Positions 5,440-20,134 of a stretch of 32,852 bases of DNA are shown here, piece by piece (the stretch's first letter is position 1; each line of letters begins with the position of its first letter). Location: IMG/VR virus record IMGVR_UViG_3300048578_000420, positions 1 to 32,852 of that record; one strand, 5' to 3'. The notes under the pieces were generated by a model. It made no database searches. It was given only the letters and a program-made list of their open reading frames with translations, and was not told where the DNA came from. Source of the stretch: a virus. Taxonomy: Duplodnaviria > Caudoviricetes. A program made the translations under genes and the position numbers.

Positions 5440-6726
5440 TTATACATAACTCTCATTGTTTTGATACGCACAACACGCAGGCGTTGTAAGGGCTGCCCAT
5501 TGCGCATCGGTATAGGTTGTTTGCGCGTTGATAACTGTGCCATTCCGGTACTTCAGCGATTTCCAACTCTGTTGCGTGAAAGTTTGTGAACCAATAGTTA
5601 CAATCGGATAAGCGTTTCCTTCAACGTCTGTTGGCGGTGTTGCGATATTCCAGTTTTTATTGCGTACAAAACGAACACTTCCCGAATAGTAGTAATCGTT
5701 CGCTCCATTGAGCGTAACATCTGTATAGCTATTAAGGATCGACATGTCATTGCTATAATTAGCCATGATGTCGGTTGCTGACCAAAAGTGAACCATTACG
5801 CCTAATTGCATAAATGCCCCGGCACTACCTCTATATCCTGCTCCAAGTGCTTTGAATCCGGATTCGGGAGTGAGTACCGTATTAACACCGCTCCAATGAA
5901 TCAGTCCCGGTTCTTTCAGCTTACCGCCCGCACTGTTGTAAGTGTTACTATCTACAAATGTACCCCCGGCATCGAGCGCCAATTGCGCTAATTCATCCTT
6001 TGTAGGCAAATGATATCCGGCAGGTGCAAGACTATATGAAGGAGCTAAATTGTACCATATACTTGCGCCTGTTGTAAGAGCTAAAAAAGAAGTAATAGAG
6101 GTGCTTAATGCAACTGTCGATCCATCTCTGTACTTCGATGTTTGAGCGTTTTCGGCTGTCCATACCTGTGTGCCGATTTTGACAGTCGGTAGCACATAGC
6201 CATCGTTTTCTACACAAAAACCTGTATCGTTTGAATCGTCCTTAATATATCTGACTCCCAACCCCCATTCGCGATTACCGTAAGTGTAATAAGTATAATT
6301 CGTATTTGGTTGAAAGTCCATATACCAAGCCTTTACACCATCGTAGTAGCTTGTCCATATCCCGGTATATTTTAAATCTGAAAATGCATCTGAACTAAAA
6401 AGCGATCCGGCAGCAAACACATTGAAACCAAATTCGTTAGTAGGTACAAGGTTTCCTCCATTACTTGTGTAAAATGAAGGTTCTCTCAATTTATATCCTA
6501 AATTTTCCCCACCAATAGCCGTAAGCAGTGCCGTTTTTTCTGCTTGAGTTGGGATATGCCAACCAACAGGTGCAAGTCCGCGTGCGTCGGCAACTGCATA
6601 GTAATTATACAGTCTACCTTTTGACCGTGCACGAGCAGCTAATACATTATACTGCCTTCCGTAAGTAAAAACAGGACCAGTAACGCGCTTTAAGTTGCGC
6701 GAATGAAAATCGAGCATCCTACTCAT
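5440..6726 (-). CDS. FISUMP (Fib_succ_major, C-type-lectin-like) domain protein, probable receptor-binding protein; two permuted domains
   Basis: Family motifs [32 protein letters not shown] and [13 protein letters not shown], then a second set [27 protein letters not shown] and [15 protein letters not shown]. Confidence 0.85.
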
Positions 6727-8830
6727 ATGCAGCTACGTTTACTTGTTTAATTGTACCGTCTACGTTCAAGAACGAAAACGTATTTGTTTTACCCGCTTCA
6801 ACTGCTGCAGTAGCAATTTTTTTCCAACCGGTTGGCATACTAACTGTAATGCCTGCGTTTACGGTTAGTATGAGCAAGCACGTATCTCCAACAGGTATAC
6901 CTGTTACTGTAAAATTCGTAATGTTGGCAGTCGCTGTAGCTATTATGATACCTCGATTTGTGAAATCGAACGTAGGTGTGCCGGATACATTTCCTTGAGC
7001 ATATGTTGCATATTTTTTAAAAAAATCAGTGTCTTTAAAGCCGTTAAGCAAATCGGCGTTAAGATTTGTAACAAGATTTGTATTAGCCATTGAGCCTCCT
7101 GTTTTTGGTAGTGCTTCGTTGGCTGTATCTTGAGCAGCTTTAATTAATGCCTCAGTATCTTCATATGCAACGATGTAATCTGTTGCTCTATTGCCACTTT
7201 CGAGCTTTAATTCAGAAATAGTTATGGTCTGACTTGAGTAAATTACAAAATGAGTCTGAGTATCGCGAGTGAAATTAACCTGCGCCGTGTAAATTAAATC
7301 CGTACCAGCGGGTAAGGTAGGCGTTAACTCAAAACTTCCATCAAAGCCTTCTATCGTGCCTAATGAAATTCCGATACTATTCCCGACCGAGCAAGTGTAT
7401 TTGAATTTTAAAATAAAACTACCAGTCACCATTTTATTTGAAATAGCCCAGATCATCCATCCTTCCCCATATCGCGACTTTGCTGTTCCAGTCCCTAAAA
7501 GCAAATTTCGCCCGCCTACTTGGATATTTTCGGCTGTGGCTTTTGCAGCATCGGCAGTAGTTTTAATGGCTGTAATTTGCGCCTGTAGCTTACCAAACGC
7601 TACAATAATTGAATCGGTTGCCGTTATTGCTAAATTACTTGCAAAAGATAAGCCTGAAAGTATTGTGTTAAGAACTCTACTCGTTGTGAAGTAAAGAAAA
7701 GAGGGGTCTTCTGTGACAGCAGCGGTAGAGCCGGGGCTCGCCGCTATATTCACGTATGTAGAGCCCGACCAACGATATATCTTGTCGGTAGCTAAATCGG
7801 TGTAAATTTTCCCCGATTCGCCAGTTGCCGGGAATGCCGATTTTGTAGCAAACTCAAGAACATCATCGACATACGAGGGTAGTAAGGTAGATGGAACCTT
7901 TCCTGTAGCATCGAGACCGGCATAGCCATTTGCAGTGTTTTTGTTAGCTACGTTTTCGGGGGTGTAACCAAGGTTGTCTTGCTTATTATTCTTAAGAAAT
8001 TGAAGTGAAGCATTTATCTTAGAAATGCCCTGAAGCAAGCTATCTGTTGGCAATGCTAATACAAATGACACTGCTGTATTTAATAACCCGGTAAGGAATC
8101 CTAAAACACCATCGGCACCAGTATCACCTTTTAATCCTTGAATACCTTGTATGCCTTGAGCGCCAGTTGCGCCTGTTGCTCCTTTTAATGAGCTTAAGAA
8201 ATTTGCAATTGTTCCGGAGTTTCCTGCTTCTAACCAGATTTGATATGCTGTTTTGCCATCGGCACCAGTATCACCTTTTACACCTTGAATACCTTGTATC
8301 CCTTGAGCTCCTGTTGCGCCAGTTGCGCCAATTGGACCTTGCGCACCTGTTGCGCCAATTTCACCTTTAAGTGAATTTAAAAAAACTAAAACAGAGCCAG
8401 AATTTCCTTGTTCTATCCAAAGCTGATATGCACTTTTACCATCAGCGCCAGTTGCACCAGTTGCACCAGTAAAGCCTTGTATCCCTTGTATGCCTTGTGC
8501 TCCTGTTGCACCAATTTCTCCTTGAGCTCCTGTTGCGCCTTTTTCGCCTTTTAACGAGTATAAGAAATCCGAAACTGATCCAGTATTACCTTGATCTAAC
8601 CAAACTTGATATGCACTTTTGCCATCAGGACCAGGTGTTAATTCTATTTCTGATAATTTTATATCAATATCTTTTGCTGTATAAAACAGTCCGAGAGCAG
8701 ATACTACGAATGAGGTAATGTTTCGTAAAACACCATTTAATATAATACCAGTGATATTACGCGCATTGTTCTTTTTTATCTTTTCGTCAATATTGCTTAA
8801 TACATTATCATGCAGTGTGTTAAGATCCAT
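6719..8830 (-). CDS. Collagen-like tail fibre protein (703 aa)
   Basis: Gly-X-Y runs alternate with three GKSAYQxW..GNxG..FLxSLKG units. Also has the fibre modules [31 protein letters not shown] and NLNADLLNG. Confidence 0.85.
8115..8630 (-). repeat. Intragenic collagen (GXY) and three-fold GKSAYQ-unit repeats
   Basis: Repeated gcgccagtt/gcaccagtt/ccttgtat 9-mers and three 'gatatgc(a/t)(c/g)tttt(g/a)ccatc' units in the DNA. Boundaries approximate. Confidence 0.85.
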
Positions 8831-13358: not shown

Positions 13359-14765
13359 TTAAGAGATTACGGCACCGCCTGCCACCTTTTGCGAGCCTTT
13401 TCCGGCATCTAACGTAGTAAGTTCAGTATCTACTATTTCAAAGCTTACTTCGGCAGGCCATTTGTTTATCACTTTTATAACTTCAAGAGGTTGCAATATA
13501 AGATCTCGATAAGCCTTCAACATAGCTTGTTTCATTATAAAGAGCTCACGTGCTTCGGTGCCGTTAATACTTTTAGTTGCACCAGGAGCGGCACCATTTA
13601 ACGAAGGATGTACATTTTGCGCATAGCAAAGCATGCTGTTTGCAATGTTGGTATCCTCGGTAAATTCACCGCCTTTCATTGTGTTTTCGAGAGTCGTGAT
13701 TTTAATGCGAGGATGTTCAGTGCCTTTTAAGTCAACAAAAAAAGTACTGAATACGGCTTTGCCTGTGTTTTCTGTTCCGGTTAACGTTTCCAGAATCATA
13801 TCATATTCGCGCTGTATTCGTTCTTTCTTCAATTCAGGATCAACGATGTTTTCACTTTTAAAAAGGTCTTCAAAGTATTTAGCATCAATTTCAATGATGT
13901 ATTTAAGCGTCATTTGATTGTTCATTAACGCTTTTTTAAATTCAGGAATAGCAACAGCCAAATCGTACCAGCCGCTTAAAAACACAGAGTACCATGGTGA
14001 TTCTGGATAATAGGCACGAGCGCCAATGGAAGGAAAATAGATTGGAATGATATAACTATATTTTTTTTCATCAACCTTTTTCCCTTTAATGTCGGGTTCA
14101 CGGCCTATTCTTCGCTGAAGATCTAACGAAGCGTTGAACGATTTAAGCATTGGAGTTCCTGAGCAATATTTTTTTTCCACAGATCCTTTATACCATTTAG
14201 CAGAATAGAAATGCATCTCTATGTCACCGTTGGCATTCATCGGACTAACTCTTGAAAACATTGCCTCTTTGTGATGTATTTCAAGTACTTTGCGCGATTC
14301 AGGAGCTTCCATATTTAGAACAAGCTCACAATATGAATGATGATAAGTATGTACATCAACACATTGTTCAAGGAGATAAAGCGGTATGTTATTGTTTTTT
14401 ATAAAAGCTTCAATTTCGGAGTATTCGCCAGGGGCAACATCTACTTTTTTTGTTTTCTTCGTTGTCGGATCCTGAATTGTTTTCATCAACTTTAATCCTC
14501 CGCCATAGGTCATGTAAGCATTAAACATGATATTAGCCGATAGCGTTTCGCTGACTTTTATTTTAGATTGAAGCTCATTTGGTTTTTTATTGTTTTTGCC
14601 CCAAGCTACAAATTGATGCTGTTCTTTATCTTCTGATATTTCAATATTATCAGGCGTTTCTTTATCGGCATCGGCAACAACTTCAGCATTTGCTTTAATG
14701 ATGAAGGCTGCCTGTTTGCCTGAGCAGTATGCAAGCCCATCAGAGGTAATCATTTGAATATTCAT
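13359..14765 (-). CDS. Portal protein
   Basis: 468 aa with WGKNNKKP, YYPESPWYS, GTENTGK, VHPSLNG and GTEARELF...RDLILQPL motifs typical of Bacteroidota phage portals. Confidence 0.8.
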   Translation of the reverse strand: MNIQMITSDGLAYCSGKQAAFIIKANAEVVADADKETPDNIEISEDKEQHQFVAWGKNNKKPNELQSKIKVSETLSANIMFNAYMTYGGGLKLMKTIQDPTTKKTKKVDVAPGEYSEIEAFIKNNNIPLYLLEQCVDVHTYHHSYCELVLNMEAPESRKVLEIHHKEAMFSRVSPMNANGDIEMHFYSAKWYKGSVEKKYCSGTPMLKSFNASLDLQRRIGREPDIKGKKVDEKKYSYIIPIYFPSIGARAYYPESPWYSVFLSGWYDLAVAIPEFKKALMNNQMTLKYIIEIDAKYFEDLFKSENIVDPELKKERIQREYDMILETLTGTENTGKAVFSTFFVDLKGTEHPRIKITTLENTMKGGEFTEDTNIANSMLCYAQNVHPSLNGAAPGATKSINGTEARELFIMKQAMLKAYRDLILQPLEVIKVINKWPAEVSFEIVDTELTTLDAGKGSQKVAGGAVIS

Positions 14766-14998
14766 ACAAATACCTCCTCTCCGTTGAAATTTATAATAGT
14801 CGATGTTCGTATTGTGCGAATTTCGCCGCCAGGAAGCTTGATGTCCATTGTCCTGTTAGGCTTATATTCATTTTGAAATATGCAAGATTGAATATTTACA
14901 ATCTCGCCCGATTCTTTAACAAACTCAAGCGAAAACGGCACGTATTCGCCTTTGACTTGCCGTTGTGCAACTAAATAAATTCGTGAACTGTGCAGCAT
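14762..14998 (-). CDS. Small conserved-looking phage protein upstream of the portal
   Basis: 78 aa, beta-rich (FSLEFVKESGEI...GEIRTIR...FNGEEV). ATGA overlap with the portal. Confidence 0.6.
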   Translation of the reverse strand: MLHSSRIYLVAQRQVKGEYVPFSLEFVKESGEIVNIQSCIFQNEYKPNRTMDIKLPGGEIRTIRTSTIINFNGEEVFV

Positions 14999-15016
14999 AA
15001 GAGGTTTCTTTTACTG

Positions 15017-15050
15017 CTAAGTTATTAAGCGAGGATAGGAGGTAGGGGAC
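15017..15050 (-). promoter_or_regulatory. Putative late promoter copy B (portal operon)
   Basis: GTCCC-N21-TAACTTAG. Shares TTTGTCCCCTACC with copy A. Confidence 0.65.
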
Positions 15051-15086
15051 AAAAGAAAAGCCTAGCTAATGCCAGGCTTTCTTTTT
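15051..15086 (-). terminator. Intrinsic terminator closing the accessory island
   Basis: AAAGCCTAGC-TAAT-GCCAGGCTTT flanked by A/T runs. Confidence 0.7.
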
Positions 15087-15104
15087 GTATTCAGCGAAAT
15101 AGTT

Positions 15105-15395
15105 TTATTCCGGAACATCTTTCGATTTTCCGTTTTGAAAACTTCGCCATTTGGCAATAAAATCGGCGAGTTGCCCCATCATCTTTGCCAGTTCCAGATC
15201 CGTTTTTTTGTTCAGCTCAATTTTATCAACTGTTATAAAGTGTTCATCGGTAATGTCTATCTCAGACTCTTTTATTTTAGCAACAAAAAGAGGGTGTTGT
15301 GTATGACTTATAAAATCATACGCAACACCTTCGTGCATTACTCGTCGCGCTATAAATCGAGGACATAAAGGTTTTTCGGGTGAAAAGTTGCTCAT
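15105..15395 (-). CDS. Hypothetical protein (96 aa), accessory island
   Basis: ORF lies between a hairpin and a terminator. No function recognised. Confidence 0.6.
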   Translation of the reverse strand: MSNFSPEKPLCPRFIARRVMHEGVAYDFISHTQHPLFVAKIKESEIDITDEHFITVDKIELNKKTDLELAKMMGQLADFIAKWRSFQNGKSKDVPE

Positions 15396-15409
15396 GGTTA
15401 TAATGATAA

Positions 15410-15429
15410 AGCCCCGATTGCTCGGGGCT
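15410..15429 (-). terminator. GC-rich hairpin / possible terminator
   Basis: AGCCCCGA-TTGC-TCGGGGCT. Confidence 0.55.
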
Positions 15430-15437
15430 AGTTAAAT

Positions 15438-15839
15438 TTATTTTTTAAAATAATTGAAATGAGATACTGCATTTTCAACATCTGATTTTAAAACTCCTTT
15501 TAAATTCATTTTGTTGATTAACAGCAATTTTTGTTCGAATTTAACAGCGTAATCTGCAGCTATCTGTTTACTGCGATCATCACTATTATGGATAAAATCG
15601 CTCATTGAGTGTGCATAGCTGTTTAATAAACGGACTTCGTCTTTGATGAAATCACATATTGCCTTATATGTTTTTTTGCTAATAGTGTAAGACACACCTG
15701 CACCGCCATTTTGATAATCGAAATGAATTGAACAAAATGCATTTCTAACTTCGTTTTTTTCAAAAGAAGAAACTGTAAAAGAAGTCATTCTTTCGTTTGC
15801 AATAAATTCTTTAGCTGTCTCAATTGATATTGTTTTCAT
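15438..15839 (-). CDS. Hypothetical protein (133 aa, start MKTISI), first gene behind repeat copy 1
   Basis: The ATG lies at the end of the duplicated promoter/leader. Confidence 0.7.
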   Translation of the reverse strand: MKTISIETAKEFIANERMTSFTVSSFEKNEVRNAFCSIHFDYQNGGAGVSYTISKKTYKAICDFIKDEVRLLNSYAHSMSDFIHNSDDRSKQIAADYAVKFEQKLLLINKMNLKGVLKSDVENAVSHFNYFKK

Positions 15840-15980
15840 AATCTTAATTTTTTTTGCCTTTATCAAACCGTAAAGGCTTCGGTGTATTGAAGTATTTCAA
15901 TAGCTCAAAGATACGCTAAAGCGTATTACCTTGCAAGCTTTAAATGTTAAATTTTACGCTAAAACGTATTTTTAACATTT
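15833..15980 (-). repeat. 148-bp direct repeat copy 1: promoter, operators and leader
   Basis: 5 mismatches against 16741..16888 by manual alignment. Contains CTTG-N20-TATCTTTG and several palindromes. Confidence 0.95.
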
Positions 15981-16436
15981 AGCGATAATGAAATTAATTA
16001 TTTTCTCAATATTATCGGCTGTCATCGACTTTTTATCGGTGATGAAATCGCTGATAGTTGCCTGCCGAATGCCTACTCCTTCAGCTATTTTTTGCTGTGT
16101 AACGTTGTTGTACTTGGCTGCAAAAAGTTGCTGGTCCAGAATTTTTTTTAACGAAACTTCGCCTTTTTTCGCGACAATAGAAAAAGCAAAATCGGCTAAC
16201 GAATTAGACGCTATTCCGTAGCGATTTACAAACTGATCTTCAAACCCTGGTTCCTTCATTTCTTCGGGTTGTTCTACCTGCTCGGCTTGAGCCAAAGCTG
16301 TACGAGATACTAAATCGTAACAGAAATTTAGCACATTCAGTAATTCTGTTTGATTGTCGGTTATGTTGCCAAAATCGCGCTCTGCTTCGAGTAGTGCGAT
16401 TTCTGTTGAAATGTTGTCGAGTGCTTGCATATCCAT
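15972..16436 (-). CDS. Protein with acidic N-terminal domain and C-terminal XRE/Cro-type HTH
   Basis: VTQQKIAEGVGIRQATISDFITDKKSMTADNIEKI matches the HTH_XRE pattern. Confidence 0.8.
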   Translation of the reverse strand: MDMQALDNISTEIALLEAERDFGNITDNQTELLNVLNFCYDLVSRTALAQAEQVEQPEEMKEPGFEDQFVNRYGIASNSLADFAFSIVAKKGEVSLKKILDQQLFAAKYNNVTQQKIAEGVGIRQATISDFITDKKSMTADNIEKIINFIIAKC

Positions 16437-16471
16437 TTGCCCGTCATGCCGATAGCGCAGCGTTTATTATT

Positions 16472-16747
16472 TTAGAAATTATTGTAATCAAAATTTTCAA
16501 CGTCGTAATCGAAATTATTACGCCACATATTTTGACAATCTTCAATTAACTTTTTATGTAATAAGCGACCGTCATGCATGAAGTCTGTACTTTCAATGTC
16601 TTCAATTTCTTCATCAGTAATAAATGAATATAAACTAAATTCATTGTTTTCTAGTTCGTTAATCATGTGATCTGCAATATTACCAGATATGAACTCACGA
16701 TTGTCATTAACGATTTGTTTTGCGATTTGTAATGCTGAATTTTTCAT
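16472..16747 (-). CDS. Small highly acidic protein (91 aa, start MKNSAL), first gene behind repeat copy 2
   Basis: Asp/Glu/Asn- and aromatic-rich (ITDEEIEDIESTDF, FDYDVENFDY). Confidence 0.7.
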   Translation of the reverse strand: MKNSALQIAKQIVNDNREFISGNIADHMINELENNEFSLYSFITDEEIEDIESTDFMHDGRLLHKKLIEDCQNMWRNNFDYDVENFDYNNF

Positions 16748-16888
16748 GATCTTATTTTTTTTTGCCTCTATCAAACCGTAAAGGCTTCGGTGTATTGAAC
16801 TGTTTCAATAGCTCAAAGATACGCTAAAGCGTATTACCTTGCAAGCTTTAAATGTTAAATTTTACGCTAAAACGTATTTTTAACATTT
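16741..16888 (-). repeat. 148-bp direct repeat copy 2: promoter, operators and leader
   Basis: Near-identical to 15833..15980. Confidence 0.95.
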
Positions 16889-17040
16889 GGAGCTAAAAAT
16901 CTTTCGAAACATGAATAGTTATAGAATGTTTAAGAAATAATAAACAGATGTAAATTATTGGTGTCTTAGGATTAGACACAACCGAGGAACGAGGCAGGAA
17001 TGTAATGACTGTATAATTTACTCCTTTTTAAGCGCGCCAA

Positions 17041-17062
17041 AAGCCTCTAATACAAGAGGCTT
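17041..17062 (-). terminator. Hairpin/terminator after the SymE-like gene
   Basis: AAGCCTCT-AATACA-AGAGGCTT. Confidence 0.55.
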
Positions 17063-17068
17063 AAAGCT

Positions 17069-17305
17069 TTATTCAAGTTCAAAACCAAATTTCTCAATTA
17101 GGTTTGTAAGAGCTGGGTTTTTAATCTGCATACGCTGCAAAACGTCAACCTTTGTAATTACTATACATTCGGGAGCGGTTAAAATCTGAACTTCATCGTT
17201 TATGTTAAAATTCAATTCGGTTAAATATTTGCCCGCTATTCTTACGCCTGGTACGTATTGTTTGCCCTGTGGCGTTTTAACAACATGTTGCGTTTTGGCG
17301 CTCAT
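17069..17305 (-). CDS. SymE-like (AbrB-fold) protein
   Basis: PGVRIAGKYLTELNFNINDEVQI...IVIT resembles the SymE pattern PxLxLxGxWLxxxGFxxGxxVxV. Confidence 0.6.
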   Translation of the reverse strand: MSAKTQHVVKTPQGKQYVPGVRIAGKYLTELNFNINDEVQILTAPECIVITKVDVLQRMQIKNPALTNLIEKFGFELE

Positions 17306-17652
17306 TTGTTGTTTTTAAAAGGTTCTACTTGCTTGTTGCTGAATAAATAGCACAACGGATAAAAGCTAAATTCGTCATCGTTCTGTTTTTCTTTATGCTC
17401 CGTTTTTTGTGCCTTCATTGGCGCTCCCCAAATGACAAAGGCGTGTTCTCCTTTTTTTACTTTAAAGCCCTTTTCTCGCCATTGAAAAAACGTGTTAAAC
17501 TCGGTGTTTTCGGGTGTTGTATAACACTCACGGATAACGTAATCGTTTACGTTTTGGTACCCTCCGTTAACTTTAATTGCTTGCTTTGCGACTTTAGAGA
17601 GCTGCTTTAATTTGTCGCGATTTTCTTGATATTTAGATTCTTGATTTTTCAT
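17302..17652 (-). CDS. Stand-alone ArdC-like N-terminal ssDNA-binding domain protein
   Basis: FNTFFQWREKGFKVKKGEHAFVIW...YLFSNKQVE matches the ArdC/DUF1738 motif TFxQWxxxGxxVxKGE...FxxxQ. No metalloprotease domain. Confidence 0.75.
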   Translation of the reverse strand: MKNQESKYQENRDKLKQLSKVAKQAIKVNGGYQNVNDYVIRECYTTPENTEFNTFFQWREKGFKVKKGEHAFVIWGAPMKAQKTEHKEKQNDDEFSFYPLCYLFSNKQVEPFKNNK

Positions 17653-17741
17653 ATCTTTGTAAAAGTTTCGAAATCCAATTTTGAAACGGTTAAGGAATCC
17701 CCAAAGCAGGTGCGAAACGAAGCTTTGGGGATTTGTTGTTT

Positions 17742-18167
17742 TTAATCCTCTAGCAATTCAGCTTCTAGGCTTGTTATTTTATCGCCTATCTCCTTATCAA
17801 TGAAATTGCAAAACCGTTGCAAAACAAAACTTGAAGAAACACTTACTACATTGTCATTTCTGTAACGACCTGCAGAAAGAACTAAACGAGCGTTTTCATT
17901 ATTGAAATCGTCTTTTTCCTCCTTCTTTGCTTCTGCTGCAAAACTTTTGATTTTCTCGCGTGTCTCAATGAAATTAACACGCTGTTGCGCTAACGTTGAT
18001 TTTCTATTTAAACGGTTGAGTTCCGCTTGAAGCTTTTCGCGTAAAATATCAATTTCTGATTTTTCTTTTACGTCTTTAGGCAGGGTTATTACTTTGCCTT
18101 TAGCTTCGTCTTTGGGTGTTGTTGCCCCATTAGCAACCTGAGCGGCTGCAGTTTCTTTTTTTTCCAT
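17742..18167 (-). CDS. Hypothetical helical/coiled-coil protein (141 aa), first gene of the accessory island
   Basis: Clean ORF, charged and helical. No function recognised. Confidence 0.7.
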   Translation of the reverse strand: MEKKETAAAQVANGATTPKDEAKGKVITLPKDVKEKSEIDILREKLQAELNRLNRKSTLAQQRVNFIETREKIKSFAAEAKKEEKDDFNNENARLVLSAGRYRNDNVVSVSSSFVLQRFCNFIDKEIGDKITSLEAELLED

Positions 18168-18446
18168 TTTGATAAAACAGTTAAGGTTATTAATTCAGAA
18201 ATAAAGAGGGTGCGAATCCCTTTAAATCATACGTAAATATAGTAAATATCAGCGAGTTAACCAAAAAAACACAGTGCTATTTTACATGTTTTCGAACAAA
18301 AAACGCATTATTTTTTTGTGTATCAGGTTTTTAAATGAGGTCAAGGGGAAATTATTTCCCTTTGTCTGCGAGTTGACCCCGCCCCCGCCCTGTCCTGAGA
18401 GTGTAGCTACACTCTTTTTTTCCTATTGTTATATGAAATGGGGTAC

Positions 18447-18474
18447 AAAAAAAGCCCCTCGAAAATCGAGAGGC
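18447..18474 (-). terminator. Intrinsic terminator of the terminase operon
   Basis: Minus strand GCCTCTCGA-TTT-TCGAGGGGC followed by T7. Confidence 0.75.
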
Positions 18475-18514
18475 CTCTCTATAGCGGATCGCCTGTGCGA
18501 TACCTCTTTTGATA

Positions 18515-20134
18515 CTAATACGTTGACAAAGGGATGAAGTATGAGCTCGCAGGATACTTATTGGCACCTACCCACAAAGTATCCCAGGCATCAGTGATAT
18601 GTGTCTTTGTTTCATCAGGCTTTTCGGGTGTGTCTTCTTCTTTCTCTGCACTCTTATCTTTTTGAAATCCATTTCTATCTATCTTAACACCAGTTGTTTG
18701 CATGGCTAGTAATAGATATTCGTTGTTGTGCTTGTTGAATGTCGGGAATAAATATTCTGGATCTCCTGCTAATGACTTGTTAATGATCTCATGCTTAACA
18801 TCATGGCGCATTGGGTTGCCTATATACTTCATGTCAACATTAAATCCGAATGTTGTAAGAACCTTCTTTACTGTCTCACAAAACGAATCTTCCTCTTGAG
18901 CGTCTTCAGCAATAGCAGTACTATCATAGTAATATATCACATCTCTATTAGGGAAGTGCAAGTAATACTTACAGAACGATTCGCATACATCTTTAAGTTT
19001 CTTAGGAGTCTTGACAAAGAAGCTGTTAACTGTCCTTAATTCACGTCCTACTGTTTGCCCTACTACCATTGTGTTAATGGCTGCATTGTAGTCATTTGCA
19101 ATCATTAATGGCTTATCTGGCATAAGATCACCATCCCATTGGCAATCCTGTTCTTTACTTCGTGCTAAGTCGTAATCAAGTGATTCTAAATAAGATATAT
19201 TACTATTAGGTTCGTAATAGTGAATAGACTCATTAAGTGAAGAATAAAAGCCGTTTGCTACTTTCTTTAATCGGTGGTTTAATACTGAGGTTCTGAATAT
19301 TAACGGCGGCAATGTTCTCTTTAGGTTGGCAAAGTATTTCTCGCCTAATTTCTCGGCATTCTCAAATGCGTCAAATTCTTCGTAGTATATAGCATTTGAC
19401 CTGAATAATTGAAGATCTTCTTCTAATGACCTTATTTTCTCAGTGAAATATAAGCTACCTGTTGAACGCTCATTTAGTTCATATATCTCATTGTAAGTTG
19501 CTTTAATGCAGGATATAAGTTCTTTGTCCATCATTTCCTCATATTTAAGGATCCAAGATCCTTCTTGAGTGGTTGGCATATCAGTAGAGTAATGTTCTGA
19601 ATGATGCCAAGGGCAATCAAACAATCCTTCATTACCACGATTGGCTTGCTTTACTTCATTTGTTAGTTTTGTATGATTGATAAATTTAGCTTCAAAGCCC
19701 ATAATCCAGTCAAGCGACATAGAGTTAGCCGACATTCCACGCTCAAATGATAAGAAATTTACAATAGTACCATTAAACCAGTACATGCAACCACTGTAAT
19801 CAAACGGTTCAGTGTAAGGCTTTGCATAGTTTAGCTTTTTATCGGGTTTCTTCCCAATCACATAATGAATGTCGCGATGATAGCCTAAACGCGACAATCC
19901 GGCGCATACTGCAGGCAAAGTGTTTTTAAGGAGCTTCGTGTAACTGGGGGTAACTAAGCCGCCCATCGAGCGCGGCATACTGAATACATTCCTTAGCAAA
20001 ATATTACAATCAATGCCTTCGCTCTTCCCAATACCACGCGCGCCTACAATTGTGCTTATGTTAGCGTTTATAATAAAACAAGGCATTATCTGTGCCTTGT
20101 TAAACCATATCTTATTGACTTCTGAGCTATTCAT
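18515..20134 (-). CDS. terL: Terminase large subunit
   Basis: Walker A GARGIGKS near the N-terminus. C-terminal RNase H-like acidic motifs ANDYN, YYDST and HITDAWD. 539 aa. Confidence 0.85.
   Translation of the reverse strand: MNSSEVNKIWFNKAQIMPCFIINANISTIVGARGIGKSEGIDCNILLRNVFSMPRSMGGLVTPSYTKLLKNTLPAVCAGLSRLGYHRDIHYVIGKKPDKKLNYAKPYTEPFDYSGCMYWFNGTIVNFLSFERGMSANSMSLDWIMGFEAKFINHTKLTNEVKQANRGNEGLFDCPWHHSEHYSTDMPTTQEGSWILKYEEMMDKELISCIKATYNEIYELNERSTGSLYFTEKIRSLEEDLQLFRSNAIYYEEFDAFENAEKLGEKYFANLKRTLPPLIFRTSVLNHRLKKVANGFYSSLNESIHYYEPNSNISYLESLDYDLARSKEQDCQWDGDLMPDKPLMIANDYNAAINTMVVGQTVGRELRTVNSFFVKTPKKLKDVCESFCKYYLHFPNRDVIYYYDSTAIAEDAQEEDSFCETVKKVLTTFGFNVDMKYIGNPMRHDVKHEIINKSLAGDPEYLFPTFNKHNNEYLLLAMQTTGVKIDRNGFQKDKSAEKEEDTPEKPDETKTHITDAWDTLWVGANKYPASSYFIPLSTY

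Follow-up and report, generated by a model that had tools for sequence, protein, structure and literature searches.

What are seven small genes doing between the terminase and the portal of a phage? The question is raised by a viral stretch of 32,852 nucleotides (nt), IMG/VR record IMGVR_UViG_3300048578_000420 (positions 1 to 32,852; hereafter the window), in which a run of open reading frames (ORFs) lies in the gap between the large terminase gene, terL, and the portal genes. A sequence-only reading had taken this run for a single island, an early-expressed counter-defence hotspot holding several undescribed inhibitors. We found instead that the gap has two layers, of which the three genes on the terL side (G141, F116 and E78) are a widespread, clade-level operon that recurs in both orientations relative to terL. 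The explanation that we favour, to which we give slightly better than an even chance as a whole, is that accessory genes vary in the gap around a GC-rich motif that is likely a cohesive-end (cos) site, that the recurrent operon of G141, the ArdcN-domain protein F116 and the SymE-like E78 is an establishment operon that probably helps incoming DNA to survive host restriction, and that two rare cassettes follow a predicted promoter that is duplicated and that the helix-turn-helix (HTH) protein C154 likely represses. A 156-nt repeat, the likely cos motif and a 24-nt leader element are additions to the earlier reading.

The terL-portal gap and its GC-rich motif

The seven ORFs had been described as co-oriented and insulated by terminators, and both points held: all seven are on the minus strand, and a hairpin with a U-tract is predicted at each end of the gap. 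The boundaries and the motif are as follows:

18515 to 20134, minus strand: terL, upstream boundary
18447 to 18480, minus strand: predicted intrinsic terminator 3' of terL (hairpin of -20.2 kcal/mol plus U-tract)
18375 to 18392, minus strand: conserved GC-rich 18-mer, likely cos (cosN-like), then an inverted repeat; best motif site in the whole window
18247 to 18333, no strand: two sites resembling the integration host factor (IHF) consensus (18247-18259 and 18321-18333), between the 18-mer and G141
15056 to 15081, minus strand: predicted terminator before the portal operon (hairpin plus U-tract)
13359 to 14998, minus strand: pre-portal gene (78 amino acids; 14998-14762) and portal, downstream boundary

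The upstream boundary was identified as terL because tblastn matched it to annotated large terminases, at 35% for the terL of Mea-Yong924-1 (and 25% identity to that of a P. gingivalis phage); it had no match in Pfam, PHROG or NCBIfam. The relatives of the phage, as judged by terL and portal, are temperate Bacteroidota phages. Identity of terL is 53-55% in Bacteroidales-type relatives and one Ignavibacterium metagenome-assembled genome, 42-44% in gut Bacteroides prophages and only 25-28% in the Duneviridae and Helgolandviridae (laban6-1, 1H, Ingeline and Leef_1), which are likened to the window by gene homology: terL is homologous in these phages, and the portal in Leef_1 (28%).

Intervals were compared in 94 loci in which a portal lies downstream of terL, a set in which the window's own copy is counted and many of the gut Bacteroides prophages are nearly identical. 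The gap ranged from 480 to 7683 bp (median 3471), with 16 loci under 1 kb, and the variable cargo that had been anticipated was indeed seen. Homologues of G141 (hereafter G) were present in 33 loci, a small ArdcN protein in 30, SymE in 28 and a methyltransferase (MTase) in 26; the four remaining genes of the window, D100, C154, B142 and A96, occurred in none of the 93 others. Scans that took in selections of 103 and 40 proteins from the 744 interval ORFs picked out HigB/HigA, GNAT-ASCH (PDC-M11), a TIR effector, PDC-S02 and HEPN in the slots of relatives, together with RadC accompanied by a phosphoribosyltransferase (PRTase), DUF932, KilA-N and lysis genes. PADLOC profiles matched genes in these slots, by sequence only (PD-Lambda-2_A/HigB among them), and none in the window. 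'Counter-defence hotspot' proved too narrow a label, since relatives have defence candidates with PADLOC matches in this slot, as well as pairs of the HigBA or GNAT-ASCH kind. The G-ArdcN-SymE-(MTase) gene types are those of plasmid establishment regions. Judged by these matches, the gap is a general accessory site with defence-like and counter-defence-like content.

Some individual slots are worth recording. The gaps of L053, L055, L072 and L145, all gut Bacteroides prophages, hold an alternative, inverted cargo of a PRTase (weakly ShosT/ComF-like) and RadC; a reverse transcriptase lies inside the gap of L134 (12908-13876); and in L397 (128-9657) a G-DUF932 unit adjoins terL and is followed by a complete type I restriction-modification system and AIPR, which could be either host sequence or cargo of the phage.

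The closest precedent is the cos-adjacent hotspots of P2 and P4, for which the available parts of the source (Rousset 2022, PMC9122126) describe about 3 kb of variable cargo beside cos, defence systems included, with the P2 hotspot next to the portal gene and the P4 hotspot in either orientation. The slot described here likewise has variable cargo at a fixed position, with defence-like genes in relatives. It differs in phylum and phage clade, in that the cargo seen most often resembles an establishment operon, in that the motif itself changes orientation with respect to terL, and in that cos is here a likely site read from sequence.

From 53 regions upstream of G, motif discovery yielded CAGGGCGGGGCGGGGTCT as the consensus, and its location was scored in 81 non-redundant loci. 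The best site fell inside the terL-portal gap in 68 of them, against 15.4 expected by length, and 36 of these 68 have no G. Where G is present the motif strand followed G and not terL (31 of 32 loci), with a fixed orientation and a spacing of 200-430 nt from G to motif, and cross-validation in which one orientation class was used for training and the other for testing gave 24/26 and 19/23. The atypical G locus L182 was excluded from the motif-orientation and G-promoter counts. IHF-like sites were found on the G side of the motif in 16 of 51 clustered loci and on the other side in 2/51, and an inverted repeat in 27/51 as compared with 4/51, which by analogy fits the architecture of cos. In addition, the record of Leef_1 ends in a GC-rich stretch 83 nt after terL, and that of Ingeline has its break in a motif-like stretch, 132 nt past terL. 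From its position and conservation, the 18-mer is probably cos.

A number of results weigh against this assignment. The best motif site lay outside the gap in 13/81 loci, mostly of the short-gap rumen type, and some of the G-upstream regions used to train the matrix are themselves among the 81 loci. For the Leef_1 termini the available part of the source gives Cos 3', a PhageTerm prediction that was not verified by experiment, and the junction ranks 6th of 75,100 positions at a modest score of 6.9, with 6 sites scoring as high; the Ingeline junction is 2nd of 85,254 positions, again with a modest score and on the opposite strand, and its ends are given as 'n.d.'. Contigs ending near the motif, at 18384 and 18398, were not counted as support for cos because contigs cannot show molecule ends. 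In lambda, the cosB-side end is packaged first and enters last; with the IHF-like sites and inverted repeat on the G side, the operon would by this analogy be at the end that enters last, and we therefore do not claim that it is first-injected DNA.

A recurrent operon led by G141

The operon and its predicted signals are:

18168 to 18241, minus strand: predicted -7-like promoter (TATATTTA, 18241-18234; TAnnTTTR count) and G141 leader hairpin
17742 to 18167, minus strand: G141, lead gene, no known family; disordered N-terminus and helix-hairpin-helix coiled coil predicted
17653 to 17741, minus strand: G-F intergenic hairpin, with the 8-mer TTCGCACC common to the G leader
17302 to 17652, minus strand: F116, stand-alone ArdC-N domain, predicted to bind single-stranded DNA (ssDNA) (Pfam ArdcN 6e-6; PHROG 7245)
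17069 to 17305, minus strand: E78, small SymE-like protein whose start and the F116 stop overlap (Pfam SymE at 5e-5, under the cut-off)
17035 to 17068, minus strand: predicted terminator (hairpin) of the G141-F116-E78 unit

When the F116 alignment alone was searched against viral contigs, 289 relatives were obtained, and counts were made from the best 80 of these, own copy included. A G141 homologue was present at 76 of the 80 loci, a SymE-like gene at 47 and an N6-methyltransferase at 44; terL lay within 5 kb at 69, and terL or a portal or pre-portal gene at 74. Among the 60 distinct F sequences of this set, terL accompanied 50, on the same strand in 18 cases and on the opposite strand in 32. 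Homologous G-led units elsewhere carry DUF932, SSB (single-stranded DNA-binding protein) or RadC. The operon is also found in cultured phages, since laban6-1 has a unit G-X-SymE-ArdcN-MTase and 1H a unit G-X-SymE-DUF932, both adjoining terL; the available passages of the laban6-1 paper contain no discussion of the G-led unit.

It can be seen from the distinct G genes that the promoter-like signal recurs: TAnnTTTR was upstream of 42/58, as compared with 15.8 in shuffles (maximum 24). The operons have a hairpin 3' of G, and leader and hairpin share a GC-rich word of at least 6 letters in 13/58 cases, against 7.3% of cross pairs. In the window the hairpin-loop word at 18209-18216 in the G leader is identical to that at 17709-17716 in the G-F hairpin. 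That the loop word varies between operons and matches within these 13/58 suggests either a co-varying binder or local duplication. A -33/-7 match on the plus strand (17626-17659, its -7 part at 17652-17659) runs antisense over the F116 start, and an antisense -7 match occurs at the F start in 12/65 F genes compared with 2.6 when shuffled. In the type I toxin-antitoxin (TA) system SymE/SymR the comparison would be with E78; here the antisense match is at F116, and there was no Rfam match. More broadly, no credible Rfam match was obtained in 7 operon loci or within 14900-18600 of the window.

The structure of G141 was predicted with a confidence (pLDDT) of 75.5. Foldseek returned no match for its fold at E<=0.001, and the Atlas held unnamed clusters only. 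The top VIA scores (Z 10.1 for ESCRT-III, 9.7 for prefoldin) were rejected, since they are tied among many helical hairpins and thus show a generic likeness. The gene is present in 8/401 Bacteroidota genomes, in up to 7 copies each. In four genome contexts, two copies had serine recombinases and conjugative coupling proteins as neighbours (in one case also a relaxase and RadC), one lay next to a tyrosine integrase and one was at terL with DUF932. Judged by such neighbours, which include conjugative and integrase genes as well as terL, G141 is a mobile-element gene common to phages and to elements resembling integrative and conjugative or integrative and mobilisable elements (ICE/IME-like).

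The two other products had been named ArdC-like and SymE-like. F116 scored 26.9 bits for ArdcN against a Pfam cut-off of 22.6, and 2/5 homologues tested also passed, so that the domain assignment stood. E78 reached 23.7 bits, short of the SymE cut-off of 29, but its homologue in L020 scored 42.6.

Rare cassettes behind a duplicated leader, and the phage that carries them

Downstream of the operon lie two further predicted transcription units, D100-C154 and B142-A96; a hairpin is also predicted at 15410-15429. Their features are:

16741 to 16896, minus strand: 156-nt cassette copy 1, with -33/-7 match, palindromes, leader hairpin and predicted pseudoknot
16472 to 16747, minus strand: D100, small acidic, 91 amino acids from the likely ATG at 16747 (ORF 16774-16472)
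16438 to 16461, minus strand: 24-nt element, predicted small pseudoknot directly before C154
15972 to 16436, minus strand: C154, conserved N-terminal domain and variable XRE HTH
15833 to 15988, minus strand: 156-nt cassette copy 2, overlapping the C154 end, 95% identical to copy 1
15438 to 15839, minus strand: B142, mildly basic, 133 amino acids from the likely ATG at 15839 (ORF 15866-15438)
15105 to 15395, minus strand: A96, next to the pre-portal gene in relatives' contigs

Exact host-type promoters had been claimed for at least two units. Using a -33/-7 consensus, we found two matches (16844-16814 and 15936-15906) where 0.23 were expected, and 4/300 shuffles reached two; however, both are copies of the one 156-nt repeat and are thus not independent. 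The bare TAnnTTTG was at chance level (2 against 1.95 expected). Host RNA polymerase would probably read these units and the G141-led operon without help from the phage, either when the DNA enters or when the prophage is induced. Each 156-nt copy also has two 14-nt TACGCT-WW-ARCGTA palindromes, one of which overlaps the -7 element. In viral contigs, patterns for the 156-nt leader were found only in L001, a second and essentially identical record which is the same phage and so adds no independent evidence; the sole metagenome match (L236) was dismissed as a chance match in GC-rich bacterial DNA.

In relatives' contigs the leader is joined to C154 via 497 other letters that replace D100 (X3 record 19), and three different sequences stand behind it (X2 loose ends 15820, 15826 and 15832). 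These swaps are like the shuffling seen with the promoter and stem-loop (PeSL) cassettes of T4-type phages (PMC2839356, available parts), where likewise a duplicated promoter and stem-loop cassette precedes swappable ORFans. The present cassettes differ from PeSL in having two copies, palindromes and a predicted pseudoknot but no terminator (a U-tract terminator is not evident inside the 156-nt repeat), and in belonging to a temperate Bacteroidota phage. By this analogy it is fairly likely that recombination between the 156-nt copies swaps genes. In the terL-portal slot of L240 (3700-6810) and L241, a long structured leader is present 4-5 times, in families of 57-158 nt, each time in front of a different gene: separate small ORFs, SymE and G. 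These multi-copy leaders look like the regulatory repeats of plasmid establishment genes.

The small unknowns had been called acidic; only D100 and C154 are clearly so, and B142 and F116 are basic. The predicted HTH protein was borne out by C154, whose C-terminal HTH_3 scored 24 against a cut-off of 23. Its 29 database homologues conserve the N-terminal domain and vary in the HTH, and in 4/4 other viral loci, two of them near-identical (L240 and L241), they follow an ORF of 83-100 amino acids; in these two the C154 homologue likewise occupies the terL-portal slot, where SymE and G accompany it. The C154 profile found no match in the 401 genomes searched, and the matches that C154 did have were at the level of the HTH only (E>=0.16). 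For D100 one other homologue was found, with no usable Atlas match and no PDB sequence match, and its similarity to a small acidic family was not significant, the portal having scored higher. B142 had no family match in Pfam, PHROG, PADLOC or NCBIfam and no PDB match, and a PDB sequence search with A96 was blank.

Operons of anti-CRISPR (acr) and anti-CRISPR-associated (aca) genes have a promoter with palindromes, then a small acidic gene, then an HTH gene. The D100-C154 cassette resembles this layout in all three respects, although no Acr or Aca family match was obtained, C154 has an extra conserved N-terminal domain and nothing marks D100 as an inhibitor. By this analogy there is a little more in favour than against the view that C154 binds the palindromes and shuts its own cassette off.

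Predicted pseudoknot-type elements lie before start codons in the window at 16438-16461, 15855-15883 and 16763-16791. The 24-nt element recurs across some 200 viral stretches, and 66/103 distinct contexts have an ATG 5-9 nt downstream of it; the genes that follow are small and unrelated, in phages apparently of more than one host phylum. The predicted pseudoknot of the 156-nt leader appears to be a longer form of this element, with compensatory changes between what are two sequence types only. There was no credible Rfam match at the element in 15 loci, and its sequence was not mentioned in a text search of papers. DUF805b RNA (RF02914) did not match at 16438-16461 (best 8.2 bits, elsewhere, against a cut-off of 35.6), and comparison with RF02913 was uninformative, as that model is pemK. 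In L275 a match to Hammerhead type II (1039-1106), which falls slightly short of the gathering score, lies near a 24-nt element.

The window itself is a 32.9-kb provirus record with a CheckV completeness of 63%, and its genes include integrase, tail, lysis and head functions. The GC content is 0.379 overall and 0.350 in the seven-ORF island. At 5440-8830 a collagen-repeat tail fibre is followed by a Fib_succ_major-domain protein.

Counter-defence and its alternatives

Plasmid leading regions are marked by orphan methyltransferases, SSBs and TA genes in the available parts of the source (Samuel 2024, PMC11541004), and such islands, like the pLS20 establishment regulons (PMC8708921, available parts), share with the present genes an anti-restriction-type domain, orphan MTase, SSB, TA-like genes and repeated upstream regulatory sequences. 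They differ in that the phage is not known to have an oriT or an ssDNA stage, the promoter matches are of the ordinary double-stranded DNA (dsDNA) kind, and no known Acr, Ard or Psi protein was identified, only an ArdcN domain. F116 belongs to the same N-terminal ssDNA-binding domain family as ArdC of plasmid R388 (PMC7213743, available parts). Judged by gene neighbourhood, a counter-defence role is the best single reading, the chances being about even for the operon and rather low for the orphan ORFs. That F116 binds ssDNA and, with the methyltransferase that many homologues add, blunts restriction would merit even chances; that D100, B142 or A96 is a defence inhibitor seems doubtful.

Several findings count against a counter-defence role. 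The methyltransferase is not in the window's G141-F116-E78 unit. F116 has 116 amino acids and ArdcN only, without the C-terminal metalloprotease domain of ArdC; metalloprotease activity is dispensable for anti-restriction by ArdC, and the available passages (PMC7213743) do not describe the N-terminal domain alone as sufficient. ArdC protects conjugating ssDNA, whereas the phage is dsDNA, and F116 found no match among 72,556 plasmids. The F116 profile did not retrieve the ArdC structure, its best match being Rad4 at E 0.35; this weak match and an ArdcN-like/RadC fusion in L019 agree with Iyer et al., who, in the part available, linked ArdC-N to Rad4 and noted fusion with RadC. The presence of defence-like genes in relatives' slots also tells against it. 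Lastly, none of the seven ORFs had an Acr, Ocr or Gam-like match (no dedicated Acr library was searched), PADLOC matched none and NCBIfam gave nothing specific, so that neither these searches nor Foldseek and structure comparison supported the proposed inhibitors.

The units might alternatively be morons expressed in the lysogen for prophage maintenance or defence, in which case E78 would be a SymE-like toxin that an antisense RNA keeps in check, and the slot would resemble the P2 defence hotspot and play no part in counter-defence. Such genes would fit with the PDC-M11, PD-Lambda-2_A/HigB, TIR effector, PDC-S02 and HEPN matches in relatives, with the antisense -7 match at the F start, and with units that are bounded by terminators and have host-type promoter matches. 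However, PADLOC matched 0/7 ORFs of the window, 33 of the best 80 F loci are without SymE while G is nearly constant, and the partners ArdcN, MTase, DUF932, SSB and RadC are establishment-type genes; we regard this explanation as unlikely. A role in DNA-end processing or packaging, in which cohesive ends or resected ssDNA would be protected or handled by G141 and F116, acting as Gam-like or packaging-accessory proteins, would explain the fixed position and strand of the operon relative to the motif, and the predicted coiled coil of G is consistent with it. This is less likely again, as over half of the gap-motif loci (36/68) are without G, G also occurs in ICE/IME-like elements that have neither motif nor terL, and there was no Gam-like fold match.

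Least likely of all is that the motif, instead of being cos, is a site for regulation or mobilisation that is linked to the operon (oriT-like or for recombination), the operon being a passenger from conjugative elements. The motif does invert together with the operon, and G is common to ICE/IME-like elements, but phages without G keep the motif, near-empty gaps included, the motif scored below 10 upstream of 15/16 scored G copies in genome contexts (the exception being a prophage operon), and the records of two cultured relatives break at a similar stretch. We thus prefer a cos-side accessory slot with an establishment operon and C154-repressed cassettes. A bolder form of it, in which a large clade of temperate Bacteroidota phages has, at a fixed place and on a fixed strand next to cos, an establishment operon in common with conjugative elements, G141 defines an undescribed coiled-coil family that is a new inhibitor of a host DNA-defence or end-processing machine, and the cassettes are an Aca-like-regulated, shufflable array of more new inhibitors, seems rather improbable.

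To our knowledge, few counter-defence proteins have been described for Bacteroidota phages. Neither the G141-led operon nor the terL-portal slot was described in the titles and abstracts searched, with most subscription papers and supplements, which may hold terminus or RNA-motif data, outside that search. Together, terL and the 18-nt motif provide a positional handle with which to mine defence and counter-defence cargo in gut, rumen and aquatic prophages, and the recurrent operon is available in a cultured, inducible phage, laban6-1, where it is directly testable. In a clade for which few ends have been mapped, the motif also offers a prediction of where packaging begins, and its behaviour suggests that a cos-like site and its cargo may change orientation as one, relative to the structural genes.

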